Source of the DNA: Candidatus Gottesmanbacteria bacterium
Lineage (GTDB): Bacteria > Patescibacteriota > Microgenomatia > UBA10105 > UBA927
Assembly (NCBI GenBank): GCA_030679255.1
Contig: JAUXTO010000018.1
Coordinates: 2,973 to 66,972 of the forward strand
Reading direction: 5' to 3'
DNA: 64,000 nt
This document shows positions 3,096 through 24,700 of this stretch, piece after piece. The notes under the pieces were generated by a model that saw only the letters and a list, made by a program, of their open reading frames with translations, was not told the DNA's origin and did no database searches. The position numbers and the translations under genes were made by a program. The stretch's first letter is position 1. Every line of letters starts with the position of its first letter.

Positions 3096-3098
3096 GGG

Positions 3099-3182: not shown

Positions 3183-3223
3183 CATGAGTCTTATGAGACA
3201 CATTACTCTCATGAGCTCCATGT
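3183..3223. repeat. Palindromic motif cluster 4, upstream (on the reverse strand) of tRNA-Ala(CGC).
   Basis: CATGAGTCTTATGAGACACATTACTCTCATGAGCTCCATG. Confidence 0.5.
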
Positions 3224-3244
3224 GTCAAATGGAAAAAGTGGATT

Positions 3245-3463
3245 TTATTTTGAAGTACTCGCTCCCGCCACTTGGGGGGTAGACTGGTTGAGCTGATTAT
3301 TGATAAAGTTCCCCATCATGGCTCCAAGCCCGAGCATCATGGCGAATGCGACCAGGAACATCCAGCTACGTACAACGATGAGATAGTGGGGAGACGTAGC
3401 CCGCGATGTGCGGTGCGCGACGTGATGATGGGTCCGATTTCTGCGGGTAATTTTTTTCTTCAT
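3245..3463 (-). CDS. Hypothetical small basic protein with one TM helix (73 aa), divergent from the giant gene.
   Basis: Internal Met of the track ORF 3245..3628. Translation is MKKKITRRNRTHHHVAHRTSRATSPHYLIVVRSWMFLVAFAMMLGLGAMMGNFINNQLNQSTPQVAGASTSK. Upstream (reverse orientation) are TTGACA-like boxes: ccTTGACAagg and gTGTCAAGG. No homology is recognised, so it may be spurious. Confidence 0.3.
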   Translation of the reverse strand: MKKKITRRNRTHHHVAHRTSRATSPHYLIVVRSWMFLVAFAMMLGLGAMMGNFINNQLNQSTPQVAGASTSK

Positions 3464-3762
3464 ACTCACTCTAGTTTTCTCTCTTTTTTGCTCCTTGTCA
3501 AGGGGGCAAACTCGTCCTTGACACACCCTTTTCGCGCGCGTCATTATGTATATATAATAACTTTTTTCGCTAGCGGTTTTCGTTGGGTTTGAAACAGTTG
3601 GTGAAAAAAGATTGCATGCCCGGATCACTACCCAGGAATTTTTTTCATTTCAAGCATACAAATAAAAAATTAAAATCCCACGCATTTCTCCGTTTACCCA
3701 TCGTTGATGCATTTCTTTCTCTATTGATATCGTTATTGTCTCCCATGAGACACAGGAGACCC
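3464..3762. promoter_or_regulatory. Divergent intergenic control region between the small reverse-strand ORF and the giant gene. It contains an AT-rich tract and TTGACA-like boxes.
   Basis: Direct repeat tcCTTGTCAagg ... CCTTGACAcacc at 3491-3529. AT-rich stretch at 3540-3700. AGGAGA at 3754-3759 is a possible Shine-Dalgarno for ATG 3763 or 3772. Confidence 0.3.
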
Positions 3763-3780
3763 ATGAGTCGCATGAGTCCA
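3743..3780. repeat. Palindromic motif cluster 5, overlapping the giant-gene start codons.
   Basis: CATGAGACACAGGAGACCCATGAGTCGCATGAGTCC. In-frame ATGs at 3745, 3763 and 3772 all lie inside motif copies. Confidence 0.5.
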
Positions 3781-6700
3781 TCGGGTGGCTTCATCCACCT
3801 CCTCCCCCTCATCCTCCTCGCCGTATTCGCCCTCACGACGTTTATCATCGTGGGGAAAGTCGAAAAGGATAAGCAGGATGTCCGGAGCAGGGCCGCCATG
3901 TCCGATGAAGGAGGAGGGGGAGGGGTTAATCTTGACATCACCGATTCGATGCGCGCCACGCAAAACGAAGTTGCCTATGAGGAAAAGCAAGCGTCGGTGC
4001 TTCAGCAAGAACAAGAAGTCGCCTATCAAGAGGTTAAACCCCCGACCGTAAAAGACGATGATCGTCCCACAAGCGGCAACAACACCATCCAGACGACCTC
4101 ATACGACGAAGATCGTGAAGCCGCCCGGGCACGACAACTCACGGAAAATAACGCCAATCAAACGACCACCGGTACTACGACGACCACCCAGACGACCACG
4201 GAAAGAGATGATTGGCGTCCCAATTCAGGAAATACAACGACTAATACGACAGGTGGAAGTGGACAACAACAGGTCGATACGACCACGACAAATACAACGA
4301 CCAATCAAGTAAATAACGCCCCCGTTCCCGATGCAAGCATCACGACTGTCCCCGTCCCGGTTGTCATCACGGACGCACCTAAGCCTACGACCAAAGCTGA
4401 TCAGCTCACTGATTGTTACGACCAGTTTGGTTACAACAGTTCCCGGTGTGATTATTTCAAGCCCACCGTCACACAAGCGCCTTTTACACCAACAGAAATA
4501 GAGACTCCTACGCCAAAACCGAGGTTGTCCCGTTACGACGAGCTTGAAAAATCTGTCACGACGACCCCCCCTCCTGCCAACGTCACGCCAACGTCGGATG
4601 AGCGTATCGCATTGGGTATCACTCCAACGTCAACGCTCCCTCCCCGTATCGTTCCCATTAATCCACCATCAACGACGACTTCCACAGTGCCCACGACGCC
4701 TCCATCCCAGAATGTATCCAATACGAACTCGTCGCTCAATCTCGCCACAACAGCCAAATCCGCTAGTCAAATTAAGAAAGATTATGATGAATGTATTCGG
4801 AGTGATTCTGGTACTGTAGCGGATTGTTACGGTATCGCCTCTGGCAAGACGACCCCCGCGCCGATTGCCTACGTTTCTCCGGCGAATGGGGGATCCACCC
4901 CGCCGATTGCGCAAGGTACGACAGGAAAAAGCGGTACATCGACACAAACTTCCAGAGATAAATTTAAAGACGCGCCGGAGCAAACACCGGATCAAAGCGT
5001 TGGAGGCGATGCATGCGCGAAAGCGCAAGGATGGGATTTGTTTAAATGTAATCTACAGAAACCAGGCACGGCGTTTCAGGCGGCTATTATTTCGTATTTT
5101 AATCAAACGTCCATAGTCGCTCCGACCAAGGCTCCCGGTGTCGTCCCTGCCCTTACTTTTGAACAGATACAGCTGAAGCGACAAGAACTTGCTGACTGTG
5201 ATACTCCGGCATGCCGTGATGACGTGAATAAAAGATTTGGTAGCCTACCTTCGACTGTTCCCACGACGGCAAAACCACCACTAGCATCTGGCAATCAATC
5301 AGTATCAACTGCTGGCGCTCCTCCTACATCAGGTGCTAAGCCCACTGGTCCCGCATCCACGACTACCACCGCTCCGGTCGCAGCGACGACCACAACGACA
5401 ACGAGTTCCACAGGATCGACCTCCACCACCGCCTCTCTCATCCCGAAAGGTTACACCGATCCGGGGGAGGCCGGGGAGAAAGCCTGGGGAGATTGTAAAA
5501 AGTCCGGCAAATCCGATTTGGACTGCCGGGGGGCCGCGGAAAAAGCCCACGCCGTGGCAGAAGCCAATTTGCCGGCAAAAATTCGATTGAGTCAGCAGTG
5601 GCGTCAGGCTAAAGACATCGGCAGGGCGGTCGATGAAGCGAGCAAAACCATGCTTGCCGAGGCCCTCAAAGCCGCCGGGGTCAAGGACAGTAAGGGGCTC
5701 TCCGCCGATGCATCGGCCAACATCCAAGCCATCCAAAAACTTTTAGCTCAACAACTTCAGGGTGATGCGGGAAAAGGTAAAACTGCCGCCGAGCTTATCC
5801 GTATTGGGGTGCTTGCGGGTAAGCTTGCCGGAGCGTCCGCAGGGACTAAATCCTCAGTGGAGATTGCCGCCGAAATCGCATCCGCCGGCCTTTTTACCGC
5901 AAAGGCCGACCCGAAGCTCGTCGTAACGACGACCACAATCACCACGCTCCCGATGTACAAAAATTCCGGCGAAGCCGTCAAATCCAACCAAAAGACGATT
6001 ACCCCGGATCAATGTACCTGGTGCGGGAGTGCGGGCCAAGGCTACTGCAGTAAAGAATGCGGCGGCGACAAATCCTGCGACGCAGGGTTTAAATTGAACG
6101 CCGAAAAAACGAGCTGTGTCGTCGATCCCAATTACAAACCCACCCCGACCCCGGCGGCGACCGAATTGGCATCTTCATCAAAGACCACGACGACTGCTCC
6201 ACTCACCCAGGAGCAATTTGATAATTACACACTCGCTAACCCTCCGACGAAACTGAAGTTTGGTGATGCAGGGTGTTTATGGTGTAACAGTTGCGGCAAG
6301 GGTTTCTGCGCTGCTATCCCTGGCGGTGGTTGCAACGATCAGGCCGCCAACCTCTGTTCAGACTGGACAAAGACCAATGACATAATTCAGGAAAATGTTC
6401 GTCAGTCTCAAAGCACGGTCGCTGTTGCGCTCCCGCAAGCAGCTCAAGATGCGTATCAGGAGGCCATAGCCACCTATAAATCTGATGAAAAAAAGCATGA
6501 AGAAGCGGTTAAAACGTTTATTGCAAATGGTGGATCTCTCGCGCAAATCGTTGCAGCCACCGGCGCCGTCGATGCATTTGACCAATGGAAGACGTATGTG
6601 GACCGCAAAGCACAGGCGACCCAGTGGGATGAACGACGATTGGAAGTGATGGGCGACAAGCTCGATCGTAAAGTAGCCCAGCTCACTTCCCAGCAGCAGG

Positions 6701-9700
6701 CCATGCTCGTCGACCGGCAAAAAGCATTCCTCGTCAATCTTGGCGCTCAAGAAGCGGCCCGTAAAGCAGTGTTTGGCGTCTCATCCGCCGGACCGAACTC
6801 GGACTCAGCTCTTTTTGAGGCAGGCACAAGCAATCTCCCGTCGGATGTCAAAAATGATATCGACAAAGACGTCACGGACAAAACGCCGGTCGTCAAAGAA
6901 GTATTTCAACTTCAAAAAACTATGGAGGATTCGGTGCAAAATCTCCAAAAAGGCCTCGCCGAGTGTGATACCGACGAGTGTCGGACCAAGGCAGCTGCGT
7001 TTTTTCAAAATTCTAAAGCAACGATTCTCAACATTGTCAATGTCGATGCTCCCCGATTGGGCCTGGATGACGGGAGGATTAAAGAGTTCAATACATATTT
7101 GACCAATGGCGAGTATACAGCCAAACTCGCGGTGGATAAGCAAAAGCTTCTCCAGGCCTACACTTCCTGTACACCGAATTGTACAAGTACGGAAGATGTC
7201 GATGGTCGCGTCCTGGTATCCGCGGAACAAAAAGCATTCACTGCACAGTATGGCAAATATGTCACGGATCTTCGCAAGGCCAATGAGGCCAACGTTTTCA
7301 AAGAAGGCTACCAGGCGGGTTTGAACGCACTTGACGTTGATTTTCAGGTCGAAGACAAAAAGCTCGCGATGCGGGATATCCAGCTCAAACTTCCTACCAT
7401 GCCGGATCATGATATTACTCAGTATTGGCAGGATTATAACAAGTTAAAACAAGAGATCGAGCAGACGAGAGGCGTTAAAGAAGCCAATCTCGCCGATGCC
7501 TATGCTCAGACGTCCGGTTGGACGGATGCTGCAGCAAAGGCGTTTATTACCTGTATTGCAACAGGAAAAACATCGTGTGATTCTGATCCGGCTGTAAAAA
7601 CAGCGAGGACGGAAATTGTCCGAAGTAATGGCGAAAATAGTCCTCAAGTCGTCCAACTTGATCGGAAGCTTGTAGAAGTCAAAACCCGTTTTGAAATGAA
7701 CGATCTCTATGCCGCGAGGTTGGAATCCGCAGGCAAGAAAGATAATTATGCATTGGAGGATCAGTATGCCAAAACAATCAGTGAGTTAGTAAGAAACGCA
7801 GATAATTATGATCTCGTCCGCGAGATTCAAAAAGATGAAGGAAAGATAAAGACTGCATTCATAAATACTGCCGTAAGAGACGGAAAAGATTGGGCGCTGG
7901 AGATGGTATGGAGAACCGGTAATCCAGTTATAGAAAAAGATGGCACGAAGAGGGAAGCCACCAAGGCAGAATATGAAGAACAAAAGCAAGCTTTAACGAA
8001 ATTACTCGCTCAGCAGGAGGCCGCCGGAATTCCGGAGCCCGTTCGAAAGTCGTTTGAACAAAAATTCTATAACGGTGAACTGCCGGATCCGAAGAAACTA
8101 CTGGCTGATGGGACTATGCCCGTCACGTATGTACGGGATGGCGCGACAGTTACGCAGGAAGTGAAAGCCAAGCCCACGGACCTAGGCAACGTGCTCCTTA
8201 TTGCTCAGACCTCCGTTCAGAAAAACGATCACTATCAGACCTGGCTCCTCCAATCGGGAAATAAGGAAAAGACTCCGGCAGATTTTGACGCCTACCAAAA
8301 GAAAGCCTTTGAGACCTATCAAAAGGACAAATGGCTCTCAGACTTTTTCCTGACGGATGAGAAAGCGAAATCAGACTACGTGAAGGGGCTTTATACCGGA
8401 GAGAAAAATGCAGACGCCTTTGCCACAGCATGGAAGCAAACATCCTGGAGGGAAGCAGTAACTATTAAAGTTCGTTCTATGGTCGGTCCGGAAATTAACC
8501 ATAAAATGGACGAATTTTATGGACTCCAAAAGGATCTCCCCATCGTGCAAGCTGACTACGTGAGCGCGCAGCGCACGAAGGATGCAGACACGCGTATCGT
8601 TTTGAGTCGTTCAAAAGAGATCGAACAAGATCCAAATTTTGCAGATATACAAAGAGACTATGGATGTACCACCGGCCGCCAGTGTCTGGAAAAACAAATA
8701 GCTCAGATGTGGCTCATGGGGCAGGATGCCAAGTTTGGGAATAACGACAAAACCAAAAAAGTTTTTGCCGACGATCCGGATTGGGCGGTCAACGGCGTGA
8801 TAACCGGAAAATTGCAGGTGGGCGATGTCCAGAATCTGGTGAATCAGTATAACAAGGAGCGGGACGAAACAGTGATTAATCCTGTCGTGAAGTATGTTGA
8901 TACGGTTTTGGGTTTTGCAAGCAACATTCCATTATTAGGCGAGCTTGCCAAGCTCGAGAGAAAGCTCGTGGAAGGCACAGTCACCCAAGCCTATCGTCCG
9001 GCAGACGAAAAGCTCGCTTTGGGATTGGCAGAATTGTACGTCAAAAGCGTTGGCGGTACGCTGGAAGACAATGACAAGCTCAAAGATGACGAAATAAAGA
9101 AAAGAATCGTCAATGTCGCGGCCCAGATTGCCCTGGGCACGTCGCTTGATAACCTCAAAAGCGGTATTGATGCGCAAGATAACCTGTCCCTGGTCAAGAA
9201 AATGGAAATACACGGCAAAAATTCCATCCAGGCAGCGTATAAATTGGAAACGAACGCCGTAGCGCAAAAGGAATATATAGAAAAGCTGGACTGGGGGGAG
9301 AAAAACGCGCTGGATTTCGTCAACTGGACACACGGCTCAGCCGTCCGTGGTCATGTGACGACCGAGCAAGGGAAAGAGCGGCTGATAAGAGGCAGTGCAA
9401 CCGGTAACAATATTGAGTATTTTGCTGGCCTTGGTGACATGGCCCGGGGCACCGTTATGTCCGGCGGTAAACTGTATGGCACACTTCTGGCATTTACTGT
9501 ACCGGCAGCGGGACTTGTGGGGGGGACTACAGCTATCACCGGTCAAGGGTTACTCAACGCAGTGGGCACCGGCATGGGTCAGTATCTGGCCGGCGAAAGC
9601 TGGGCAGGGACAGCCGAGGCATGTTCGTTTAAATCCTCGATGGATGGGGCAGCCTGCGGCAGGTCTGCCCTCATGACGGCATTTATGACGATCTCCGCGG

Positions 9701-12700
9701 GTCAGGGTGGCGCGGCGATCTTGAATAAGCCCGCAGCATTGACAAATTCAGTTGCAGTAGCAGAAAACGTAATTGTTGGTGGGTCCAAGGTGGGCGCGAT
9801 TACGTCGGCCGCGCGCAGACTTGAAGGAGCCATCGCTGCTTCCGCACCGGTGCAAGCTATTGAACGCGCTATGGTCAGCGCGCCCGCGCAGTTAGGTCTT
9901 AATGGGTTGGGTATCGCAGCGTTTGGCGGCGAGGCGTTGCATGTTTGCGGCACCGAAGGAGTAGGGGTCAACTGCGGTATCCAGGCTGGATTTACGGCGG
10001 TGACGGCGCTTCGTTTTCTTAATGGTGGAGCGCAGATGATTGCCGCGAGGCAACCTCCGGGAAGCGCTCTGGGCAAGGTTATTACAAACGGCAATAAAGC
10101 TATCGCCGTCCTTGATGCCGGGGTCAATGGGACATTAGCCGGTTCCGCCTGTACGGCGGCCCTCGTCGGTCTTGCGCCCGGGGAGAGCTGTGGCACGGCC
10201 ATCATGTTTTTGACGACAGCGACGATTCATACACGGGATGCGTTCAAACCCGGTGGTCATCCGCCGGAGACTGCCGCTTCAACCAAAGATTCGGGAAAGA
10301 AGTTCGCATCTATGCAGGACGTGGCCAAAGATTTTAACAGCGCGCTTTCCGTAGACGCCAAGACCGGTAAGGTCACGGTTAGGGCGGATAAAGAAATTAC
10401 ATTCACAGACGTACAGGGAAAAGAAAAAAAGATTTCAGTCAAAACGACATCGACTGATGCGGAGATTGCTGCCGCGCGTAAGCAGCTCGTGAATGATTAT
10501 GCAGAGACGAAAGTCGCATTCGACGAATCGGTGAAAGTGGCCCAAGCAATAGCCCGGACGAAAGTAGATCCCAAAGACACAGCGATGGACAGCGCGATAA
10601 AGCTTGCCGAAGCTAAAAAAACATTCGACTCATCCGTCTCAGAAGCCTCATCAGACCCATCGAAATTATCCCAAGTTGATACCGCAGCCAAAGCGCTCGA
10701 AACGGCCGCCACCCGCTACCGGGCAGAATCGGCGGATCTGAAAGCCGCCCGCGGGTACAAAGTCCCTGCGGACAGTGATCCGGTCAAAGCTAAGGCACAT
10801 CAAGACGCATTAGCCACATTAGACACATTGGTCACACGAACCCGTCCCGCAGGAGAGACTCCCGCAGCTGAGAAAGCGTATAATGTGGCCTACGAACGCG
10901 CTAAAGAGGGAGTCGTTATAGCCCAGGAGTCTATCAAAGCAACGTCATACAAGGGACGACAGGAAGTTCTTCATAAAGAAGTCACCGCCGCCCGCGCCGT
11001 CAAAGCCGAGGCACAAACCCGTCTTGATAATGCCGAACCAGAGCTCGCGCTTGGCCAAAAGGTTGGTAGTTTATCACGCGCAGAACGTTTTACCGCGATT
11101 GTCAATCTTGAAGCAAGAGTTAATGAATATAAAAACGCGGCACAATCAGAAGGAGGATGGGAGGCAAAGGTCCAGCAAGCAGAAACACTGCTCACTGCAG
11201 CAAAAGCAAAACATGCATACATCACGAGTTTGGAAGTCGTTAATGGCGATAAACCACTGGCGAAACTTCCGGAAATTCCTGCGGATATCCAACAAACATA
11301 TGATGCACTGACCAAACATAGTGAAGCCCAACAGCAGATTGTTCAAGGGGCTGAAAAAGCGATTGAGCAATCCAACACGACGATTGCAGAAAAAGTCAAA
11401 GCCCGTGACGGCGCCGGGACCAGACTTGCCAAGCTCGGTGATACCCCCGTTGGCTCGTATGTCCGTACGGAAATTCTCGGAAGACTGTATCCCGAAGAAT
11501 CTCAAGCGCAACAGAGACTAGCTACCGACGTCGGCCGCAGTGTCGTCGACAAAATCCTCGCTCAACTGCGGAGCGCTCCGCAAGCTCCGGCAGCCGCCGC
11601 CAATCAGCCGCTTCTGACCCGCCTCCGTGACGTTTTTTCTCCTGATGCTGCTGCTCGCCGAACCGCTGCAGAGGCAGAAAAAGTTCAGAGCACGGCCGCG
11701 ACTGCTACACAGCGCGCACAACAGACACAAAGTGAACTATCACGGGAAGTTGCACGGCTGGAAAAAGAAGCATTGGACGCAAAAGATAGGAGTACAGTGC
11801 GTACTACAGAATATGAATCTGCTCTTGCCAAAGCCAGACAAGAATCGGAGCAAAAGCCCGCATTACACGCCAAAGAAAAAGGTGAAGTCGCATTTCAGGA
11901 ACGATTACTCGCAGAAAAACAAGCGGAAATTAGACGGTTAGAAGAAAGCCGCGCGTCACTCAAAAGCGACGTGGATAAGGCGGTGCGCGATAGCGTCATT
12001 GTGGGCGCGCGCCAGACAGAGCAAACATATCGTGATCAATTAACCACAGCAAAACAAGCGCTGGAGGATGCCATCGCGCGGACATCAGAGGTTGTTCGGG
12101 CCAATGATCAGCTTGGCAAAGCTAAACAAACTGCGCTTGATATCGAGGCTGCAAACAAATCAGCAAAGGAAAAATTAACTGAGGCCACGAAAAATACCGA
12201 CGTTGCCAAACAAAAAGAAAAACAAGCCAACGATCGGGTATTTTTAGAGCGGAAAGCCCTCAAAGATCTCGCTTCCGTGGCGAAGGATGGTCAGGCACTG
12301 CAAAAAGAACTCCGGGAGCAAAAGGATTTGGAAAAAAAGTATGACCGCGAGCTTGTGGATTTGCAGTCCGAGCGGAAAAAATTGGAATTAGAGGTACAAA
12401 AGCAGACCGACGCGCTTACCAAAGCCAGAAATGAAGTCAAATCCAAACCAAGCAAAGAAGTGTTGGATGCCAACGAATTGGTACGCCAGGCAGAAGTGAG
12501 GGTTGCTCAGGCGCAAAATGAGCTGACGCGTTTGGATAATGAACTAAAAGAAGGAAAAACAAGTAAAGCCGTTGTTGATATCGCTAAGATTGCCTATCAG
12601 GAAACCAAAAATGATGCAGAACTGAGGGTCCGTGAAGCTAATAAAGCGCGCGATGGCGTAATAGACCTCGATCCGAGGGCGCAGAAAGCCAAGGATGCTT

Positions 12701-15700
12701 TGGATAAGACATGGAAATTACTGACGGAGAAAAATCAGAAATACGCCACAACAAATAAAGCCTGGGAGACAGCAACCAACCGAATTACAGAGTTAGAATC
12801 CCTTCCGTTATCTAAATCCTTCGCCCAGCGTCTTAAAGACGCCTTCATTCCTCCCAAGACAACTGTTCCCGCCTCGCCCGTCGATTTATCCGCCGAAGCT
12901 CCGGCGAAGGCGGACCCCACCGCCGTCAAACAGATCTTCGACCGTACCACGGTCTACAATGAATCACTCCGGGCAGCACAAGATGCGTTGGGAGAAAATG
13001 TATTAGCATCTCCATCCCAAGAAGCCATCAGACGAGCTCAAGATGCCACAAAACAGATCATAGAACAACAGCTAGTTCTTGAAAATGCTGCTGCTCGTGG
13101 GGTTGCTGCCGATTCGGTGGCAAATAGTTTGAACTTTAAGCCTCGTCCGCGTGGCATTGCCGCGATGCAGGCTGGGATAGAAACGCGTCAGGTATGGGCA
13201 CGGGATGTATGGAATGCTACGGCAGAAAGTACACAGGAAAGAGTCTGGGGAACCGTGGAGAAGCCAAGCCGCCTCCGGTTATTTGTCGACCGTATGGGTG
13301 ACGGTCCGCTCAATCGCGCACTTGCCGCAAGTGAGATGGCCCGCGCATACAACCGGCAGGAAATTACGGGATTTGTGGCTACTGCCAAAGTTGAAGGCGT
13401 TCTGCGCGATGGTAAACAGATACGACTTCGCGGTGCAGGTGATACGATAAAAAGTTTGAGTGATACCCTCTCTGGCTCACCCGATGGCGTGTATGATGTC
13501 ACAACCAGCGGAGAGAACGTTCGCGTGGTCAAATATGGAAATAAATTGTACGTTGGGAGTCAAAACAGTCCCGAAGCAGTTGCGAACGCATTTGCAACGA
13601 AAGAATCATTGACCATCAAATCGCGCGTGACGGATATTCCTGTCGATAGCAGCGGAAAAGTCACTGTAACCATCAATGGAGAAGCAATCGCAGCGGATTC
13701 GTTTGCTGCATTGAAGCCTAAATTGGCAGGGAAAAGTGGTGTCGCCCGTAGTGAGATTGGCGGCAAAGAAGTGCTCTTAGAAGTGCGGGAAGGTGATGTG
13801 TTCATTGCCAAAAACGGGAGCAACGGACAGCCGCAACTCGTTGAAGGGAAGATCGGGACAGAATTTTGGATCGATGAGTCGATTGCCAAAACGAGGAGCG
13901 CTAAGCGGGTCATCGCAGAGTTGAAACGAGGCATTGCAGATATCCAGAAAGCCAAAGGCGACCAGCAATTTTGGGGATTTGAAAAAGGAGAGAAAAATCA
14001 AGTTCAGTATATTGCTGACGCCATTTTAGGCCGGGAGACCGGACAACGCGGCACGCTTTACGAGGCGATCACCGGAATAGGAAAGACGACCACGATTATT
14101 CCGAGTGTCGCGGTTCTCAAGGCCCGCATCACCGGTTCGCCGGTTGTGGTGATCCTCAATACGACGGCTGATGTTGCGGCGTTTTTTAAAGATTCCCCGT
14201 CGGAATTTTTTACGAAAGTCGGGCAAAAAATCGTCGAGTTTGACGCCAACAATTTTGATCCAGGAAGCCCCGCGCATACCAAAGCCCTTGCGGAAGCCAA
14301 CATCATCGTCACGACCAAAGATGCGATTTTTGAGTCCATCAAAGGCAAGCAAGGTGAGCCGTTTCTGCGGAAAGCCAAGGGGTCGGTGCTCCTTGCTGAT
14401 GAAGCCCAAAATACCCTGCGCCTGGAGATCGACTACATCATCACCCATGGTGGCCGGACGCGGCTTGCGGACCGTCCCGACGGACAGTCAAAGATCGATA
14501 TGTTCACGGAGGTTTTGGATGGGGCAACCCTAAAGAAGCTTCGTGCCACACTTGCCGAACGGGGGCTTGAGGCGATGCTTGAAGAGTCCGGTATCACGCG
14601 CGCAGATGGCCGCGGCAAGGTGGGGAAAGCGGAAGTGCTTGCCGAAAGTTACCGCGATCTTTTGGAATCAGCGATTGCCGCGACGGAAAAGGCAGTTCCG
14701 GGGAGCGAGACCGCCATACGGGAGTACTTGCGGACAAAAGGGCTGGAAACGGGTCAGCCGGTCACGAGCGAACAGGCATTTGCGCGGTTTTTGAATGAAA
14801 TTTCTTTTGCTGGAGACAGTAGCGTTGCCATCAAGATAGTACAAGCCAACACGCGGGAGAGGATTGCAGCGTTTAATAGTATTGTGAATCAGTTTGCCCA
14901 AGTGCCGGGCAATGACTTTACGGCTGGTAAAGGTGGGTTTGTCGTCCTTGCCGAAGGAGGCGCGATATCCGGCAGGACTCCTTCCCGGGCGTATGATTCG
15001 CTTGCGCTTGCCCAGGTGGGGTTTGAAGTACTTTCCTCCCGCGGGGTGAAGGATCTCGTCAGTCCACCGCTTCGGGATGTATCGATAAGCGAAAGCAGTA
15101 TCGGTACCAATTATGCCAAGTTTCTCAAAAACTTCTCCGAGATTTACGGGTTTACGGGGACTCCTGATCGGGTAGCAGCACAGTTTGATCGGGTTTATGG
15201 TATTAAACTCGGCAGCGGTGGGGTCAAGCAGTTTGATTTCGTCTTCGGTGATCCGGTAAAAGGCTCCCCGGCCAAGCACGGAATTGCTTCTATCGTGGGT
15301 TTGGGTCAGGCTACTACTGAGAAACTGCGCGAGACGTTTTCTACGGTTGTTGACGGGCAGGGAGACAAACAAGTCACGCATATCGTCAATACCGATAGCA
15401 GTATTCCCCAGGGAGAACTCCTTGGATTTGCCCGTGAGCAGGCAGCGAAAGATTTGAGCGGGAAGTATGCCGGCAAAGGTGTCGTGGTCATCGTCAATGA
15501 TCCGAATGGTCAACATTACGCCGTAGAATTTGGCCGCGACGGAAGTGGGAAAGTGGTCGAAACGTCGCGCCGGATGCTTACTGATAGTGACGCTAAACGC
15601 GTGAGCGCAGAAACGAACAATACAGCAATCACTTCAGCCAAAGAACTCATCAATAGCGAGCTTGCGGCAGCCCGGACAGATGGCAAGCGGGTATATCAGA

Positions 15701-18700
15701 TTTATGAAATCGGACAGCATTATGGGGTAGACCGCGTGACCTTAGCACAGGATGGGTTTGTCGTTCTTGCCAACAACAATACGACGCTCACGGATTTTCT
15801 CCAGGGGGTGGGACGCGACCGTGGACTGAATGGTGGTGCTGGGACGAATGCATACTCTCGGGTTGATGCGATCGTTCGTGGTGTAGACGTAGCGAATCAA
15901 GGCACATTTACCGATCAGGCAGCGATACGCAATCTCGCCGATCAGGTATTGCGTGCCTCAGAGAAACGTGCCATTGCCCAGTCTGAGCTGGATGCGCTAG
16001 GACGCATCGCCGAAAACGTCGGGTTCGATGTTATTGCGCGTATGGAAGAGGCAGCAAAAGGTGGAAGGATTACGCAAGCCTGGAATAGTGGCAAAGTCCC
16101 GCAGGCGGCTCTTTTTGACGGTCTTCGCGAGACGCTCCGCAGCCGCGCTGAGCTGGATTTTTCCATCGGCAAAAGCGATGTGACCGGTAAACAGGATTTA
16201 CTTGAAAAGGTGAACCGTATCCAGAAAATGTTGGTTGAAACCTACGAGAGCGAGTCCTATAAATCTTTGCCGGAGTCTTCCAAGCGGGTGCTTCGTGATG
16301 CGTTGACACAACAGGATGGTACGGTCAAAACAAATCTTTTTACCGAGGCGGACCTTGTACTTCGTGGTGACCGGAAAAATGGGAAAGGAGACGCTGTCGG
16401 CGCTCTCAATGAGTCAAAAAATCTCATCGATTATCTCGACCGAGTTAATGGTGTTGTGAAAGCAGAGGATATACCCAAAACTATCGCTCGCGGCTTGGTC
16501 CCAACGGAAAAGAATACCGATTTTGCTGCAGCAAATCAAACGGGTCAAGCGCCATCAGTTTCCGCTGTTCCCAACGATCCCATTGGCACCGCCAACCGCC
16601 TCGCCGCCGAGATTGCCAATCGTGGAACTGCCGCTGACACGACTCCCCTCACTACCTCTCAACAAACGACTCTCGCTGCGGGTTTTGTCGCCGCCCAACA
16701 AGCGCTTACACAGGCCGCTTCTGCCCGTGATCAATTTGCTGCAACTATTCCACAACAATCATTCCGTACGTCAGGCTCTTTGAGTCTCGATGACCATATT
16801 ATCGCGGTTGACAGTCAGGGTAATCGGGTGATGCTAGCGATTGGAAAAGATACGAAAATTGTCACACCGCTTGCCGGTGGTGCAGGCGAGACATATTACG
16901 ATTTTAATGTTAATTTTCAACCATTTCAGATATCTGATCAGGTAAGGACACTTACCATTCAGTCCGGCAATGAAGTGTATACGGTGGGCGCTGATCAACT
17001 TGATGATGCCAGAAACAAGGTGGAGCAGGAACTCATCACTCCCGAAGACCAGACCAAGAGAGATGCCCTGGAAAATGACCTCGCTCAAGCCAAAGCACAG
17101 GCAAAAGAGTTTGAGCGTTTACTCGTCCAATCTCCCCAAATCCCCCAATCTCCCCAAATACCCCAATCACCCCAACTTCCCGTCGACCTCCGCTCCGGCC
17201 CCTGGACCAAACCTGTCGCCGACGCAGTAGCCCAAGACCTCGCCACCGGTAAAAAGACCGTGGCAGAGGTTGGGCTAGCCGAATCGTACGCCCTCCACGC
17301 TCAATCCGTGGGTCAAACCAGGACTGATATTGAGAAGAGGCTCGCCGCCGACCTCGCCGAACGCATCACTCAGGCTCTTCCCTCTAGTGTTTCTATCCCA
17401 TCTAGTGTTTCTATCCCTCCTTCTCTTCTCTCCGCCGTCGCGGCCTACGAAAACGCCGTCACCAAGGCACTCTATCATGACTACGACAAGTTCACTGCAT
17501 CCGAAGGCCGTACCCCCGACGAGGCCCAAAAGCAAATCCAGCTCGCAACTGACACGATCGTCATAGCCCGGGCCAACGCAGAGGAAGCGATCGCTAAGGC
17601 GCTTGCGGGCAAAACGGATCCAAATGCGCAGCTCACGGTTGCTGAACGGGTAGCGGGAAACCACGCCCTTACCGCCATCTCCGGCGCCCTCATCGCCGAT
17701 GCCCCGGCCGTCGCCGCCCGCCTCTCCGCCTTCGTCACCGGCGCCCGGGCCACTGGTATCAGTCCGTTTGTAGGGGATAAACCGTTTACCAACGTCACTG
17801 AAGTGCTTTTCCGCGCGACGCTGAGCGCTATCTTTCCACCGGCATCCCTCAGCCGTGCAATTATGCAAATTCCGGAGTTTTTAACTTCACTATCGCCGGA
17901 CTACGTTGCCCGTTTGAGAGCTATACTGGATCGGGTAGGCGCAACAAGAACGGATCGTTTATCGAAATATCTTTTTAACGCTTTCTCGACGTGGCTCAGC
18001 GTAAAAGATCCGGATTTTGCTCCTGCCGCACCGACTTCTACTGCTCCTTCGACTCCGTCTACCGCCACTTCCGGTACGGCCGAAGTCGTCCGATCAATGA
18101 AAGAAATCACTGATAATCTTGATAGTCTCCTTTCTGCGAGTTCGACACTTCCTACCCCTGATGCTGTCATGAGCCCTATCGAACGAGCTCAAGTCTATGA
18201 GAGTTTATCGTTGCCGGATGCGGGGGTCGTAGAGAGCGCAAAACAATTGCTTCAAGGTGACGTTGGCATTCGACTCATGAGGGCATTAGGTCAGAAGACG
18301 GATGTATTGTTGTCGTCACAGGTAGAGGCCAAACAAACAGCTACTATCGATGCCATCATCGCCTACGAAGCCGCGGTGTTGTCCGGAGATAAGACTCAGA
18401 TTGCCGCTGCCAAGTCAAAAGCCGAAGCAGCCATCAAAACCTTCGTCACAGATTCTTCTCCGGAAATGCAGTCGATACGCGCCGGAGCGCCGAAGAAATT
18501 TATATTCGGCATTGATTATGCCGCCATCCTCACCCGTACTTCATCAGTCGTCGTTTCACCATCAAAAGTTTCAAATTCTGCTCCCTCTCTTCCTTCTACT
18601 CCTCCTCTTTCCTCTGTTTCCCAACCCGCCCCGGCTCCCGTAACTTCTCCTACAACTCCCGTAGGTTCTCCCGTATCAGCTCCCGCTACGAGCCAACTAT

Positions 18701-21700
18701 CACCCGGCATGCCTCAGGATTACTATAAACCGATTCATGAGGATAGTCAGGCATGGCCATTTGCAAGCGGTATCTCCCGAGCGTGGGATATACTCGGCAA
18801 AACCGTCCATGTACTTGTGAAAGAAGTGATATTTGCTGACCCTTTCGCCTCCGTCAAAACATACGGCCCATTTGCGATCAATGAAGATTCGGTCATCTCG
18901 TCAGGCATGGTTCGGACACTTCGCGCGGTGACGCTTGTTGCTTCACGCGCGGCGATTCTTTCCATGCCCGGCATGCAACCGTTTATTATCCCGGTTCTTA
19001 TGGAAGACGCCGGCAGGATATCACGAAGCGCGTTTGTGTCCGTTGTCGTGCGTCCCGTCGCCCGTTGGTTTGCCAAAACCGCACTCGGTGGATTCATTCG
19101 TGATGTAGCGACCATGAATATCCTGGAAGACTGGGTCAAGCCCGGATCGCGTCTATCCCAGACCATTAAAAATATCCTCATCGGAAGCCGCGAGGGACTT
19201 GCAGAGCATTACATGAACACGACGCCCTTCGGGATCGGGCGTAAAGACTGGACACCGGTCAATGCGGTTACGGATACCCTTGGTTGGATCGGGACGCGGT
19301 CGTTTTCCGGAGGCGTATTGCTTCTCTGGGACGGATGGCGCGCATGGCGTGGGGTGACGGAGTTTATTCTCGGGGACGATTCGAAGCTAGCCGGTTATGA
19401 GGCGGTGCGACCCAATTATTGGGCGACGGTGGGCAACAGACTTTGGATATTTCCCAATTGGCTTGTCAACGCGACCCCTATCAATAATGGCGCCGTGTGG
19501 ACGCTCACGCGATTTGGGTACCTGATTCTTCCTTTTTCCATCGGGTTAGTTGCGGTAGGCTTGAGCTTTATTCCTCTCGTAGGACCGATAGCTGGTGGCG
19601 TGGTTGGTTTATTGGCCGCGATGACATTCTATGTTGCCCAGCAGGCCGGGTCAATGCTTTGGGATTATGACATGCACCGGCTGATCAATGATTATGGATT
19701 TGCTAAGCCATGGTATTGGAAAGTAGGGAAAGAGCAATTCCGCATGAGTCCTGACCAAGTGGAGCTCCAAGCAATCAACGCCGCAAAAGCAACCCCGGCA
19801 AGTCCAGTCACCGTGTTTACGAACGCTCATAAAGCAATCATTGATGAGATTTATACGCAAAACGCAAATATTTTAGGGGCGTCAAATACGCCGATAGTCA
19901 GAGCGCAAAAGATGGTCAATGCATTACTCAAGTCAAATCCTGAATTATTCCAAAGTCCTGCTGTTATTGAACAGATGGCGCAATATGTTCTGACGCTCAA
20001 ACCAAATAGTAAGACGGATATCGCTGAAGTTGCGCGTTTGGTGAGAAGTTATGTGCCTACTGCCCCCTCCACCCCGGCCCCGGCCACATCAGCACCCACA
20101 CCGGCCAGCGGCAATGGAGTCGGCGTTACTCCTTCCTCCCCAACGACCCCAATATCCCCAATTACCCCAACCTCCCCAATCCCTGTTGTCCCCGGCAGTT
20201 ACTCTGATGCCACGATTCGGGATGTCCGTGGCGTTTTTACAGCAGAGACGAACCGGGTGATTGAGGAGATTCAGACAAACATGCAAACGCGATTGGCCAA
20301 GCGACCCGCGACCCGTACCCCTCCTGCAGAATTTTCCCAGGCCCTGCGGGCAAGAATTTCCGGTAGCATTCGGGACGAGCTGACGGACACGGGATCCCCG
20401 ACGATGCGGACGATCACGGATCGCTTGAAAGGTCTCGGAGTCGACCAAGCAGATATTCCGGCGGTCCTCGCAGCATACGTGACCCAGATCGAGACGGGCG
20501 ACCGTGTCGGTCAGATGGTAGACCAAATTCTCGCCGGTCTTTCATCAGAGACGAATACGAGAGTGATACCGCAGTCTGAACTCGTTGCGGTTAAAGGTAC
20601 GCGCATGACTGTCGCAGACATCCACGGAGATATCGCCGCAATTGAACAGTTACTTTTGGACGAGAACATCATCACCGTCAATCCATTGACGAAAGCGTGG
20701 ACACTCAATACCAATTGGATAGAGCGCAATAATGATCCCTTTATTCTCACATTCTTAGGAGACAAGCTCGATCGCGGTGAAAATGATGCGGGTAAACCTG
20801 CCCAATTTGTGACGGACTATTACGGATGGCTATCTCTCTTTAGGGGACGCTCGGATACACCAGGTACGGCGATTATTCAGAAGATACAAGATCTTATCGA
20901 TCAGGCCAGACGTGCCGGATTGGAAAAAAAGTTTATTGTTCAGGACTTTGCGGGAAACCATGAGATACTCAACCTTTGGGCGCTAGAGGTCTTTGCGACA
21001 GAGTTGGGTAGTGATAACCCTCCGGATCGAACGTCCCAAAAAGGGAACCTTTGGTATGGTGATCCGAGTAAACCAAAAGCATTTAGCTTTGTCGCAAACG
21101 GTGTGAGCTGGAGCGAGCTTCGTGCACTTAAGGATGCGAAGTTTATCGTCGACGGACAAGGTGTTCCGTACCGTGAATTTGTAGCCAGCCGTCTCTACGT
21201 CCAGGCCCGATCGGACACATCTATCATGCAGCACACCGATACCACGGTATACGCTCGCTATATATTTACTCCGGATGATTTTACGAGGACAGATCAAAAA
21301 GAATATATCCGCGCACTTCTTTCCGGTGATGACCGGTTGAGTGCTAGGGCTTTACGATGGATTGATGGCCAGGTCAAAGCAAAGGGCCTTACCCAACAGC
21401 AAGTTGTCGATCGCATTAACGGTAACATCGGGAAACTCGTTCGCTCTAAAGAGCCGGGTTTTGCCAAGGCGTTGTTTAATGCGATGACCGATCATGGGCA
21501 GTTTAGTGAAGAGATCCGTACGTTTGATTTATACCGTTCGATCATGGGAGTGGCCGATGGCGCCATGGTCAGTCATGGTCATAATCCCGATGTCGTGGGG
21601 GATTACTTGAAGAACGGGAAGGCCGAGGGGCTTGATCGCAAGCTTTCTCGCGCGTACAGCAAACGGTCGACCGCTTCATCAGGAACTGCAAACAAAAGGG

Positions 21701-24700
21701 AAACGTCAGTGGTGACTTTACAAGAACGCCCACCAGAGTTTGAAAAAGTCTACAAATATACGCTCACCCTCCCAGGCATCGACCTACCATTCCTGCAGAC
21801 GATGAATATCTCGCTAAATATCCCCGTCGCGGCCCCCGCCTCCGGCGCGACCGCCGTTCCCTCCACAGTTACTCCTCCTTCTACTCTGTCTCAACCGTCT
21901 ACCGCCGCCCCCGCCCCGCAATCGACAGTAAAGAGCGATGAGGTTATAACAACGACAACAGTTGATGGTATTCCGGGTAATGTCACCATCCTAAATAAGG
22001 GAAATGTTCTTATCGTATCGTATGTCGAGACTGATCCGGCAGGGACTCGAAGAGAATATGAGCTTACGCAAGGCGTTCGTACGAATATTGGTCACAATAT
22101 CGTCATGGTGTTTGAAGGATTGAATCCATTCAGTGGAATAAAATTGAATACGTATTCAGAGCTTGAAAGTAAAACAATCGAATTTACCGATAGCCAAAGT
22201 GGAGACCTGAGAGAGCATGTCTATGTTAACGCTTTTGGTATACCGTTTGATCGGTCCGGAAATGAAATAACGAATCAGTGGAAAGATACAGCTGTTTCCT
22301 CGAGATATGAAATAAGAAATAATAATGGGTCAATCGAGATACGCAAAAAGAGAGTCCTGATTGTTCGATCCGGCGATACTATCGGAGGGAAAACACTCAG
22401 TCCTTCCGATAAAGTCTCCTACCTTGCGGGAGCACAGAGCGTGGGCGATTATGGGACTTCTGAGGAAATTTGGCGACGGTTCGATACCAATAATCAGATG
22501 GAAGTTCCGATTGACGCAAGCTTTGATTCGGCGAAAGCACCGTTGGGTGTTTTGAGTAATAACACAGTGAGTATTGGTGCATATCAAGGTAATAGCACGA
22601 TTATTGATGCTCATTCTGTTTCACCGGTAGTACGGTCGTCAGGTATTGGAGTGCGAGATGATGATCTATTTTTAGGATCCACGAGTCTCTCAAGGAAAAA
22701 TATATATCTTAACGGGATAGGATTAACATCAACACAAAAAGCTGAAGCGGTACGAAGCATTGTTAATTCATCACAATCTATTGCTGGTTTGTTGAATGAT
22801 ACAGATAGGTATGATCAGTACGTTATTAGGACGATCCGAGACTTAATTACTAATGGATTATTGACTCAGGAAGAAGCTGTTGGTGTGCTTAAGACGATTG
22901 ATCAAGGTGATTATCTTGCAAATATTCAAAAAGTAATTATAGAATTGTCAAAATCTACCGTTCCTGCCGCCGCTGCCGCACCACAACCCGCTCCCCAGCC
23001 GGCTACTCCAAAATATGTATTTCCGCCCCCATCCTTTGCTCCTTCCCGTGAATGGCAGGTTGTTGGTGATTGGATTCTGCCTTCCGGTGGCGAATATCAT
23101 ATAAATCTAGATACTGGCTTCAAAGAAGCCAGGTGGCTGAATTTACCGAAAGCTCAACCCGCTCCCAAGCCCGCCGCTCCAGCCCCGCAGCCCGCCGCGC
23201 CAGTCCAGCAACCCGTCCCACCATTCTTTAAAACCCCAACCGCCCCTACCACCCAACCCGCCCCGAAAACCCAGCCTTCCGCTATCCTTCCCCTCCCCAG
23301 CGAAGTCATCACGGACGCGCTCGTCGGTGCATTTACGCAGGCGGGGATTGCCATTGATTCGGCTGCCAGGATATTCATAGAACGGCTCGTCATGAATGCT
23401 CCGACAATAGCCGGTCAAAATATGAACACGATGAATGCTGTCGTGGTACTCATTAACAGAGCGCTTGCCCTCGATCCCATCCAACGAGCACTTCAGGGCA
23501 TCGGTACTCTTGAAGATGCCCGTCTTTACATTCCCATTATCACCCGCATTATTACGACCAACCCTCTTCGTGCGCCCGCGCTTCTTGCCAATCTCCTTAC
23601 AGCTATTAATGCTGTGGGAACCTTCACAGATACGCTCGTAATACCCATACAACCAGACGGTTCCACGGTGACTCCGGAAAGTATATTCCTTCAGCTTACC
23701 GTCCCGGTTGCTGGTCAAACTATTGATGGATTTATGCGTGATGTGTTTGATCTGAATCACTTCGCTTCGGATGCACTGACTCCTGCACTACAGACAGACG
23801 TCGCCCGTATCCTCCTCGCCCGCAACGCCCGGTCTCAGGCAGCCCGAGCTGCAGCTCAACCCTTAACTTCTCCTAACTCTCTCCTAACTTCTCCTGCTGT
23901 CACTGATGATTCTGGCACCGGGGTGATAGAGGTCACACCCCCCATAAATCAAAAAATCACAATGACTCTGCCAGATTTTCTCGCTCTCGTAAAAAGCTCA
24001 ACGTCTCCCTCTCTTGATCCGATAGGCCGGCAAGCGCCAGACGGGTGCAGTCTCTGTAGCGATCTCATAGCAAATATCCAGAAAGATTTTGCAGAGTACT
24101 ATTTTGCCAAGGCTCAAAATGATCCTACAGCCCCCGCTAAACTTACTGCGATTAAGACGAAGCTCGAGTCCCATTTTCTTTTCAAAAACGGCAAACCGGT
24201 TACCGAGCCGGGAGTGGGAGATTTTGCGTCTATCATGAGGAAGGCCGGCAATATTTTATTCGGATGGGCGGATAAAAACTGGCTCCTCTACTTTGCCACC
24301 CAAGCCTGGATTGCCCAGGCGCGAGGGGATACGGACGCTCAAACGATGTACAGCCAAAAATTTGCAGTCTACCGCAATGTTCTCAGCGCTCCCCTGGACC
24401 TAGACACAGCCATCATCAAATTTTTGGAGAGCCTGGGAGATATCGAAAAGGCCGCCAAGACCTCCACTCCCCGTCCCGGCGGTGGCGCCGGCTCCACGTC
24501 CGAACCTGATGTCATCCCCAACGCCAGTCCGGATGTTGTTCGGGAGAGCCCGACTTCGTATGAATACAAAGACAGTACACAGCATTTTTCCGGTATTGAT
24601 TATGAGCATTACGTTCATGCTCAGTATCGCCTCGGCAGGAAAGAACTCACGCTTGAGCAGGTAGATAAGGTGCTCGAAGCACTCTCTCTTCAGGCAGAGT

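Follow-up and report, generated by a model that had tools for sequence, protein, structure and literature searches.

What is an ATPase with the look of a protein-export motor doing in the middle of a giant protein of an ultra-small bacterium? The question is raised by a stretch of Candidatus Gottesmanbacteria DNA (the window, 64,000 nucleotides), in which an initial annotation, made from the sequence alone, read the segment 13990-15860 as a SecA-like translocation ATPase on the basis of three blocks of resemblance.

The giant protein and its ATPase cassette

A frame free of stops for at least 20,142 codons runs through the window and beyond its end, and the corresponding frame is also open in the orthologue L003. 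Translation probably starts at ATG 3763, the start given by the gene call of an independent Logan contig, or else at ATG 3745. The frame and its hydrophobic segments are as follows.

3574..63999, continuing beyond the window end, + strand: giant open reading frame
3799..3855, + strand: N-terminal hydrophobic signal or anchor helix (hydropathy 2.66)
9481..9537, + strand: weak second hydrophobic helix, aa 1970-1988 (hydropathy 1.51)

The N-terminal helix is followed by KVEKDKQDVRSRA and then by a Thr-rich tract (approximately 4081-4353); a K/R n-region, a TM helix and the motif Q(Q)D[IV]R.RA are common to the full-length homologues. The second helix aligns near much stronger TM helices of the homologues P0003 and P0016. 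Paired cysteines end close to it, the last Cys of the giant protein being aa 2206, and the helix may mark where an ectodomain gives way to a Cys-free part that holds the ATPase. The host protein, of more than 20,000 residues, is encoded on the chromosome of a Gottesmanbacteria-like member of the Patescibacteria and is either membrane-anchored or secreted. An antisense ORF at 14668-15516 was rejected as spurious, because it contains six stops in the orthologue.

The ATPase cassette starts about 3,400 residues into the giant protein and is single-copy, the family HMM matching aa 3451-4151 only. We set its limits by BLASTP against the homologues P0002, P0003, P0008, P0010, P0011, P0014 and P0020. 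Since the alignments with several of them reach aa 4295-4346, the conserved cassette is larger than the segment first proposed, which lies within it. The four peptides on which that proposal was built (TGIGKT, DEAQ, the TNY..GFTGTP block and QGVGRDR) are all present in the giant frame on the + strand, and the SecA strings quoted beside them match E. coli SecA. The parts of the cassette are listed below with the evidence for each.

13891..16593, + strand: conserved ATPase cassette, aa ~3440-4340, ~900 aa (BLASTP extents against homologues)
14071..14088, + strand: Walker A or motif I, TGIGKT (G61 and K62 invariant in 15 sequences)
14398..14409, + strand: Walker B or motif II, DEAQ (D167 and E168 invariant in 15 sequences)
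14422..15099, + strand: first-lobe insertion of ~225-240 aa between motifs II and III (15-sequence alignment, AF2 secondary structure)
15097..15219, + strand: re-entry block SIGTNYAKFLKNFSEIYGFTGTPDRVAAQFDRVYGI, with TGT as motif III (hhalign to the cognate SecA block)
15220..15915, + strand: second RecA lobe (invariant residues, AF2 order of strands and helices)
15703-15732, + strand: motif V, YEIGQHYGVD (Y602 and G605 invariant in 15 sequences)
15802-15822, + strand: motif VI, QGVGRDR (Q635, R639 and R641 invariant in 15 sequences)
15916..16593, + strand: long helix, then a conserved tail of ~180 aa (AF2 helix, conservation among homologues)

In the AF2 model the insertion consists mainly of helices and has two beta-hairpins; the 15-sequence alignment places its conserved core, V.P.E.G..SGR.YS....LAY...G, at 14920-15039, with G358 and G374 invariant. 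The helix after the second lobe spans at least 44 residues (15916-16047, H673-716 of the model). With motifs I, II, III, V and VI all intact, the cassette reads as a catalytically intact, apparently active SF2 ATPase of DEAD/DExH type. One assignment of the initial annotation has to be changed: GVGRDRG, offered as the equivalent of the SecA GRGTDI arginine finger, belongs to helicase motif VI (Q..GR.R). Motif V, GRGTD in SecA, corresponds by position to YEIGQHYGVD, in which the residue matching the SecA motif V arginine is not conserved in the family, as judged by eye from the alignment.

The cassette is under strong purifying selection: its dN/dS against L003 is 0.052, with synonymous sites saturated, and over 40 codons of the re-entry block dN equals 0. 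A search of 1.84 billion representatives yields 27 relatives, 22 of them with E<=1e-10. The cassette is found only in giant proteins of Patescibacteria and of one DPANN archaeon; all the relatives are parts of other giant proteins, 1.5-8 thousand residues long, most of which carry a signal or anchor at the N terminus.

Comparison with SecA, helicases and viral ATPases

Pairwise BLASTP against E. coli SecA gives nothing significant, the Walker A segment reaching E=7.7, and AF2 run from the single sequence produces a poor model. Both results would suit the view that the resemblance is due to chance, or that the segment is the decayed, inactive remnant of a helicase and acts only as a spacer. That view is effectively refuted by the low dN/dS at saturated synonymous sites, the catalytic residues invariant across 15 diverged homologues, the 22 relatives below 1e-10, and the confident AF2 model obtained with the alignment (pLDDT 79.3, pTM 0.69); we leave it a negligible probability.

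Searches with curated SecA models, proposed as a check of the initial annotation, are negative. Pfam SecA_DEAD, SecA_PP_bind and SecA_SW do not match the segment 13990-15860 at E<=10 or any of the 15 family members at E<=1; NCBIfam SecA gives no match, and a home-made SecA HMM gives the family members at most 6.5 bits. Profile-to-profile comparison does detect a relationship: hhalign aligns the 15-member family profile with a profile of 12 SecA/SecA2 sequences over 286 columns, from Walker A through the insertion to the TGT block of motif III (probability 95.3%, E=2.4e-8), against E=0.68 for the reversed-profile control. The three blocks contribute unequally. In a panel of SF2 controls scored against the family profile, E. 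coli DeaD (57.0) outscores UvrB (47.0) and SecA (46.9); because DeaD stands above SecA, the Walker A and Walker B blocks are generic SF2 similarity, and only the third of the blocks claimed as SecA-like keeps a SecA-directed signal. Taken alone, this third block aligns with the cognate SecA block at a probability of 91% and E=1.3e-6. SecA also comes first in a PDB-wide profile search (2ipc, residues 368-407) and among nine SF2 controls, at E-values of only 0.7 and 0.023, respectively. The block thus ranks SecA first in three tests and appears to be the sole, weak, sequence signal directed at SecA. The other parts of the cassette give nulls in hhalign: the insertion alone is not significant against SecA (E=0.13-0.23), and its best local pairing, at that same non-significant score, is collinear with SecA DYIV..GEV.IVDE.TGR; the second lobe has no sequence similarity to SecA NBD2; and the conserved 300-aa tail gives no significant similarity to SecA, scaffold and wing included (E=0.41).

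The generic score of the first lobe brings in a different explanation, which we consider unlikely: the cassette would be an SF2 helicase or translocase that depends on nucleic acid and resembles the DEAD/DEAH, Ski2 or XPD/DinG families, its insertion being of Arch type. As one enzymatic module among many in a multi-effector giant protein, it would work on RNA or DNA, either inside the producer or, once delivered, inside the host cell that the CPR bacterium attaches to. Besides the higher score of DeaD, the sequence searches lean this way. Pfam ResIII matches 12 of the 15 members and DEAD 9 of the 15 (best 2e-10); the window sequence itself lies above the curated cutoff for ResIII (24.4-25.1 bits against 22.5) and below it for DEAD (21.6-22 bits against 26). 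The best PDB sequence-profile matches are SLH1, ASCC3, Brr2 and RIG-I (E=7e-10), and the sole PADLOC match is a type IV DinG. The giant protein also carries further domains, namely kinase, FHA, GNAT and a weak Fic match (cytoplasm-type) together with HINT, as is the case in multi-effector proteins. Yet the helicase matches are confined to the lobe from Walker A to Walker B, which is common to all SF2 proteins including SecA, whereas the sequence beyond the N-lobe recovers SecA as the only family. Pfam detects no nucleic-acid-binding accessory domain in the segment or in the 15 members, and the locus is a syntenic one on the chromosome and not part of a mobile element. Membership of XPD/DinG finds no support in FeS cysteines, an Arch domain or a DinG/Rad3 profile; the cassette has no cysteines at all, so an XPD-type FeS cluster is impossible. 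Generic SF2 helicases (ResIII PF04851, DEAD PF00270, Ski2/Brr2, RIG-I, DEAH, XPD/DinG) share with the cassette the RecA-RecA fold and motifs I, Ia, Ib and II in lobe 1 and V and VI in lobe 2, but they lack the re-entry block, and their likeness ends at the shared motor. XPD/DinG is the only one of these families known to have a large domain at the same insertion point.

The predicted structure also favours SecA over the helicases. In a Foldseek search of the PDB with the AF2 model, the top 21 matches are all SecA or SecA2 (best 6itc_A, E=7e-13, TMq 0.46). DinG is the next family at E=2e-8, approximately 4.5 orders of magnitude behind, and RIG-I/MDA5 trail by more. SecA and SecA2 are therefore the solved structures closest to the predicted fold of the cassette, and not some unrelated P-loop family, as structure prediction had been expected to reveal if the initial annotation were wrong; of the two results named there as jointly refuting it, the absence of a SecA_DEAD match is observed and the unrelated structural match is not. 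The domain order is that of SecA: NBD1a, inserted domain, NBD1b, NBD2 and helical C-domain.

Predicted viral structures offer a second group of comparable matches. The BFVD and PDB Foldseek libraries are probably of similar size, and in BFVD 7 of the top 10 matches come from Klosneuvirus-type viruses and are labelled DUF3638 or 'ubiquitinyl hydrolase 1' (A0A1V0SG94, A0A3G5A476 and A0A3G5AAN1 among others). Their E-values of 1.2e-13 to 4e-10 and TMq of up to 0.51 equal or slightly better those of SecA over the whole model, and they too are ATPase modules within large proteins (~1,000-1,500 residues). The cassette could belong with the uncharacterised DUF3638-type SF2 ATPases of giant-virus proteins, in a distinct lineage of giant-protein ATPases, its likeness to SecA being convergent or very ancient. 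We think this improbable. These proteins are viral and have no sequence-level match to the family (Pfam DUF3638, PF12340, and DUF3645, PF12359, match 0 of the 15 members at E<=1), the targets are predicted and not solved structures, and DUF3638 proteins could themselves be SecA-like. The assignment is also mechanistically empty, because DUF3638 has no functional literature.

Topology, locus and a possible export role

The reading that we put first, tentatively and at somewhat less than an even chance, is that the cassette is related, at an extreme divergence, to the SecA-like ATPases that Omnitrophota and Actinobacteria carry in giant secreted proteins, and serves as a cis-acting motor for self-export. 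On the combined evidence, the SecA-like export motor of the initial annotation is partly supported. Such a motor would be ATP-driven and would thread polypeptide: inserted domain and second lobe might close on an unfolded part of the giant protein in the manner of the SecA clamp and pass it through a membrane channel, which would help the export or insertion of extracytoplasmic parts of the same polypeptide.

Topology bears on this reading in both directions. Ahead of the cassette, most homologues with an N-terminal region have another TM helix and show a steep fall in cysteine content, as would suit a cassette in the cytoplasm with access to ATP. In the archaeal homologue, and at the thresholds used in some others, no TM helix lies between signal peptide and cassette; this would put the ATPase outside the cell, where ATP is absent, and counts against an export motor. 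The neighbouring genes include rho, a LysM/M23 peptidase and PMT/DUF2298/YfhO-type membrane proteins, with a sortase and Wzy_C in one genome; enzymes of the cell envelope and of glycosylation are encoded among them, a point in favour of the export reading. No dedicated channel gene is seen nearby, which speaks against it. The analogy with accessory SecA2 systems drawn in the initial annotation does not extend to the locus, as SecY2, Asp and Gtf genes are absent within 10 kb of three full-length homologues and upstream in the window.

Relation to SecA and to SecA-like domains of giant proteins

SecA and SecA2 (PDB 6itc, 1tf2, 4uaq, 3bxz, 2fsf) share with the cassette a two-lobe DEAD-type motor with intact ATPase motifs, a large insertion that parts motifs II and III in lobe 1, where SecA has its PPXD, and what appears to be a common re-entry block, NY..F....G.TGT....F...Y, which in SecA takes the form QNYFR.Y.KL.GMTGTA..E..EF..IY. 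A long helix after lobe 2, in the position of the scaffold and wing, and a total length of approximately 900 aa are shared as well. The insertion of the cassette is more helical than that of SecA and not demonstrably a PPXD, although full-length SecA chains lead the structural matches; its tail is not demonstrably the helical scaffold, helical wing and IRA1 two-helix finger of SecA, and Pfam SecA_SW gives no match. SecA is free-standing and cytosolic, docks on SecYEG and binds signal peptides, whereas the cassette lies inside a chain of 20,142 aa or more.

The fusion of a SecA-like ATPase to a giant protein, thought undescribed when the locus was first annotated, has precedents. West-Roberts et al. 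2023 (bioRxiv 10.1101/2023.11.21.568195) described ATPases of SecA-like type within giant secreted proteins and proposed self-export; giant actinobacterial secreted toxins carry a SecA-like ATPase with a proposed self-export role (Kaur et al. 2021, PMC8195603); and a 2026 preprint (10.64898/2026.06.07.730766) reports divergent SecA_DEAD and SecA_PP_bind domains in giant proteins. The hosts of the published divergent domains are Omnitrophota and Actinobacteriota (West-Roberts et al. 2023; 10.64898/2026.06.07.730766), as against Patescibacteria and DPANN here. Those published domains are found by Pfam PF07517 and PF01043, and the CPR family is not; the Omnitrophota proteins were compared by description only. 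A plasmid protein of a Rickettsia endosymbiont and an Embleya protein reach E=4e-65 and E=1e-30 with the SecA HMM that gives the CPR family at most 6.5 bits, and their SecA-like domains give no bridge to it. The common ground is a SecA-shaped ATPase with no recognisable scaffold or wing, set inside a giant, membrane-associated or secreted multi-enzyme protein with TM segments, in ultra-small or predatory/episymbiotic prokaryotes. A SecA-like motor in a giant secreted protein is a known theme in other phyla, to which the CPR cassette would be a divergent addition.

The ATPase module, its conservation and its locus

The gene of the giant protein occupies a forward-strand frame that runs without interruption from 3574 to beyond 63999, comprises at least 20,142 codons and exits the window. 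In an independent assembly, which has the same LysM/M23 peptidase gene upstream, the start of the giant gene is called at the ATG equivalent to position 3763. The product is most similar to a partial Candidatus Gottesmanbacteria protein (84% identity) and to a protein from a Patescibacteria MAG (87%), which makes the organism a CPR bacterium. CPR genomes are usually smaller than 1 Mb, so a gene of this length takes up a sizeable share of the genome. Elsewhere among CPR genomes the syntenic homologues encode only 3,899-5,270 aa, and the window copy has therefore been expanded several-fold.

The initial annotation placed a SecA-like motor at 13990-15860. The four peptides it quoted are all present, and the interval encodes residues 3473-4095 of the giant protein. 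It lies inside a conserved module, but BLASTP against several homologues shows the module to be larger, spanning approximately residues 3440-4340 (window 13891-16593), about the size of a complete SecA. The module is present in a single copy within the giant protein. HMMER run exhaustively over 1.84 billion representative proteins recovered 27 relatives, of which 22 have E<=1e-10, whereas two word-indexed homologue searches gave just one or two close fragments, and a scan with the single protein yielded no more than one orthologue and a 2.4-kb fragment assigned to a Gammaproteobacteria bin. Almost all relatives sit within other very large proteins of 1,500-8,000 residues; those with names belong to Patescibacteria (Beckwithbacteria, Gottesmanbacteria) and one Nanoarchaeota bin. 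That 2.4-kb fragment, a contig of 2,425 bases binned as 'uncultured Gammaproteobacteria' (CAZERT010000087.1), is 39% identical to the module; its size and the distribution of the remaining family make mis-binning of a CPR contig probable.

Across 15 aligned modules the GK of Walker A, the DE of Walker B, the proline of the TGTP motif III, the Y..G of motif V and the Q..R.R of motif VI are invariant. Comparison with the 87%-identical orthologue gives dN/dS of 0.052 at dS of 1.6, with zero non-synonymous changes over the 40 codons of the TNY..GFTGTP block. Judged from these sequences, the module is an active SF2 ATPase. An antisense ORF of 282 aa at 14668-15516 is spurious, as it contains six stops in the orthologue.

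The following features lie upstream of the giant gene:

1279-2358, LysM and M23 peptidase gene, immediately upstream of the giant gene in 4/4 genomes examined and preceded by rho in 3/4
2432-2504 (forward strand) and 3097-3171 (reverse strand), tRNA-Ala genes with GGC and CGC anticodons
2520-3134, reverse strand, 204-aa ORF between both tRNA-Ala genes, overlapping the second by ~38 bases

The 204-aa ORF and the tRNA-Ala pair thus separate the peptidase gene from the giant gene. The same LysM and M23 gene is found in three of the compared loci (L018 8047-9153, L019 7776-8852, L020 7735-8841). In three CPR genomes, on contigs of 417-608 kb, the homologous gene directly follows rho and the LysM/M23 peptidase gene, and this synteny indicates that the locus is chromosomal and vertically inherited. 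Neighbouring genes across these genomes encode GT-C-type membrane proteins (PMT, DUF2298, YfhO), Wzy_C, sortase and cohesin/dockerin proteins; SecY2/Asp/Gtf accessory-Sec genes are absent from the upstream region of the window and from the 10-kb flanks of three full-length homologues.

The Nanoarchaeota homologue (L021 10001-26284, 5,427 aa) carries the same cassette among genes for S27e, S24e, Spt4 and Rpb7. Its archaeal assignment looks genuine, because the surrounding ribosomal and transcription genes are of archaeal type. That a DPANN archaeon shares the cassette with CPR bacteria suggests transfer between the two domains of life. Close to this homologue is another protein, longer than 2,982 aa and bearing several kinase domains (L021 29469-36284).

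Relationship to SecA and to other SF2 proteins

Pfam assigns the segment to ResIII (24.4 bits, cutoff 22.5), with DEAD below threshold; the SecA_DEAD, SecA_PP_bind or SecA_SW match anticipated by the initial annotation is absent even at E<=10. Among the 15 family members ResIII is found in 12 and DEAD in nine (best 2e-10), and SecA families have no match at E<=1. Neither an NCBIfam search nor a phmmer search of the PDB returned matches, and BLASTP against E. coli SecA was not significant. When the family profile is run against the full set of PDB sequences, SLH1/ASCC3/Brr2 and RIG-I come out on top, along the Walker A-B lobe only, and a single weak SecA match (2ipc, E=0.074) falls on the TNY..TGT block.

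Against a SecA/SecA2 profile of 12 members, built from genes in a plasmid collection, hhalign aligned the family over 286 columns that begin at Walker A, include the insertion and end at motif III (probability 95.3%, E=2.4e-8). A reversed-profile control gave E=0.68. That the likeness is due to chance, or the segment a decayed remnant, appears extremely improbable. Taken by part, the N-lobe reached a probability of 88% and the 37 columns of the TNY..GFTGTP block (15097-15219) 91% (E=1.3e-6); the insertion alone gave E=0.13-0.23 and the conserved tail E=0.41, and the C-lobe was without signal. The N-lobe signal is generic, since in a panel of E. coli SF2 controls DeaD (57.0) outscores SecA (46.9), with UvrB at 47.0, RhlE at 40.4 and DinG at 35.7. 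Once the N-lobe is left out, SecA takes first place among nine controls, but only at E=0.023; a profile of the post-insertion region likewise places SecA at the top of the PDB, on the cognate residues (2ipc 368-407), though with an E of 0.7. Therefore, of the three blocks originally put forward as SecA-like, the third points to SecA consistently but weakly, whereas the Walker A and Walker B blocks are as in any SF2 protein. That the cassette is a nucleic-acid helicase module, as the Pfam domains and the PDB leaders might suggest, strikes us as rather unlikely.

The sequence GVGRDRG, formerly set at the position of SecA GRGTD, is instead helicase motif VI (Q..GR.R, 15802-15822). Reading of the 15-module alignment and the strand order of the model identify YEIGQHYGVD (15703-15732) as the equivalent of GRGTD (motif V), the C-lobes not being reliably aligned by hhalign; in the same alignment the position matching the GRGTD arginine is variable within the family.

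Embedded or truncated SecA-like domains from a Rickettsia-endosymbiont plasmid, Embleya and Mesorhizobium do not bridge the CPR family and SecA. The endosymbiont plasmid (pRiCimp001, Rickettsia endosymbiont of Culicoides impunctatus) encodes at L016 5086-9513 a 1,475-aa hypothetical protein with a clear SecA-like NBD1-PPXD-NBD2 (SecA HMM E=4e-65, residues 294-818), adjoining a hypothetical protein of 4,928 aa. Plasmids of rhizobia and other Alphaproteobacteria likewise carry truncated SecA-like genes, which are annotated as 'prepilin peptidase' or 'DEAD/DEAH box helicase'.

AlphaFold2 with the 15-sequence alignment produced a model with pLDDT 79.3 and pTM 0.69 (the single-sequence model, pLDDT 39, was unusable). 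The modelled order is RecA lobe 1, an insertion, the TGT strand back into lobe 1, RecA lobe 2 and a long helix of at least 44 residues. The insertion of ~240 residues lies between motifs II and III and is mainly helical with two beta-hairpins. Foldseek against the PDB returned SecA or SecA2 as the top 21 matches (E between 7e-13 and 1.6e-8, TMq reaching 0.46), followed by DinG (2e-8) and MDA5/RIG-I (2e-7). A SecA-derived polypeptide-threading motor is the favoured, if tentative, reading of the cassette. Among predicted viral structures the best matches come from Klosneuvirus-type giant viruses, whose DUF3638 / 'ubiquitinyl hydrolase 1' proteins fit the model as well as SecA does (E between 1.2e-13 and 4e-10, TMq reaching 0.51). 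The cassette could accordingly represent a separate DUF3638-like lineage with no assigned substrate, but none of the 15 family members matches the DUF3638 Pfam model, and we consider such a lineage unlikely. We found no functional literature on DUF3638; an identification of these proteins with the VTD deubiquitinase giant proteins was dropped, as the paper gives no support for it. PHROGs and PADLOC gave nothing useful.

Architecture and topology of the giant protein

A K/R-rich N-terminus is followed in most full-length homologues by a hydrophobic helix and a motif of the Q(Q)D[IV]R.RA type. In the window (3763-3900) the K/R-rich stretch precedes a hydrophobic helix of ~20 residues and then Q(Q)D[IV]R.RA or NFD[IM]R..A, a pattern seen also in the homologous proteins P0003, P0006, P0010, P0011, P0014, P0016, P0017 and P0028. 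The pattern might serve in sorting or processing as a signal specific to the lineage. Where homologues have an N-terminal region, most show a second hydrophobic helix 400-1,500 residues before the cassette, at which cysteine content drops from ~1-7% to 0.1-0.9%. In the window protein 36 of 51 cysteines are closely paired within residues 281-2206 (window 4414-10191), the next ~4,600 residues (2207-6824, window 10192-24045) have none, and the last ~18,000 residues have just 15. The archaeal homologue has a signal peptide, no further TM helix and three cysteines. The cysteine pattern would fit an ectodomain with disulfide bonds and a cytoplasmic part after it; it would also fit a part obliged to remain unfolded while transferred.

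Pfam domains elsewhere in the giant protein, all on the forward strand, are as follows:

34192-34389, PT-HINT, weak match
46363-46641, GNAT
46987-47880, intein-type HINT (Intein_splicing E=2.8e-24, three stretches)
49228-50307, TM helix then LytR-CpsA-Psr (LCP) domain
50878-51192, GDSL, weak match
53188-53394, FHA
55960-56256, Fic, weak match
61351-62160, Ser/Thr kinase

By analogy with polymorphic toxins, the HINT-type domains could split the giant protein into pieces or free its C-terminal modules. Within 49228-50307 a charge-free TM helix stands directly before the LCP domain; the pair is conserved with the homologue P0002 (residues 5876-6348) and resembles a complete LCP-type wall-polymer ligase inside the giant protein. 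A single polypeptide combines FHA, weak Fic, Ser/Thr kinase and GNAT domains, which need cytoplasmic cofactors, with wall-acting domains. FHA recurs in P0006, in P0016 and in a 1,788-aa gene overlapping the end of P0003. The topology signals conflict: an LCP domain placed behind the TM helix at aa 15219 speaks for a cytoplasmic location of everything before that helix, but the downstream FHA, Fic and kinase domains would then follow without a return TM helix.

A proposed motor in giant proteins and its known counterparts

For the making, export and use of proteins tens of thousands of residues long, a SecA-shaped ATPase recurring in such proteins is the main mechanistic clue to date. A more novel proposal, to which we assign little probability, makes the cassette a polypeptide-threading motor built into the giant proteins of ultra-small episymbionts (CPR bacteria, DPANN archaea). 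Such a motor might serve self-export, supplying the driving force where the cell's own machinery cannot export the giant protein; to our knowledge, archaea are without SecA. Alternatively, the protein might be a self-translocating effector, whose Cys-free part would enter a partner cell, where ATP of that cell would drive the cassette to reel in the remaining ~16,000 residues with kinase, FHA, Fic, GNAT and HINT-released pieces as cargo. We know of no characterised precedent for this mechanism.

Divergence is so great that standard domain annotation labels the cassette a generic helicase, and surveys that count PF07517 miss it. If it is an ordinary helicase, caution is due before similar ATPase domains of other giant proteins are read as motors for export. 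With few members (27 of 1.84 billion representatives), strong constraint, one copy per protein and a syntenic chromosomal locus, the family is a tractable target for biochemistry.

The initial annotation knew of no described SecA paralogue fused inside a giant surface or effector protein. Neither the concept nor the speculation about self-export is new. West-Roberts et al. 2023 (bioRxiv 10.1101/2023.11.21.568195) reported divergent SecA DEAD and preprotein-binding domains, without scaffold and wing, in most full-length giant genes of Omnitrophota and in some of those of Actinobacteriota, and proposed that they take part in exporting the giant protein itself. A 2026 preprint (10.64898/2026.06.07.730766) includes, for the long proteins of Omnitrophota, a PF07517 architecture cluster of 20 proteins, and Kaur et al. 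2021 (PMC8195603) described giant toxins secreted by actinobacteria, in which a SecA-like ATPase is predicted to aid the secretion. CPR examples are not mentioned in these three works. What stands of the claimed SecA-like motor is an SF2 ATPase that resembles SecA in domain order and nearest solved structures, but belongs to the SecA family by no sequence criterion. The cassette is best described as a new, highly diverged version of the known theme of an ATPase motor inside a giant secreted protein, a theme that now extends to CPR bacteria and one DPANN archaeon.
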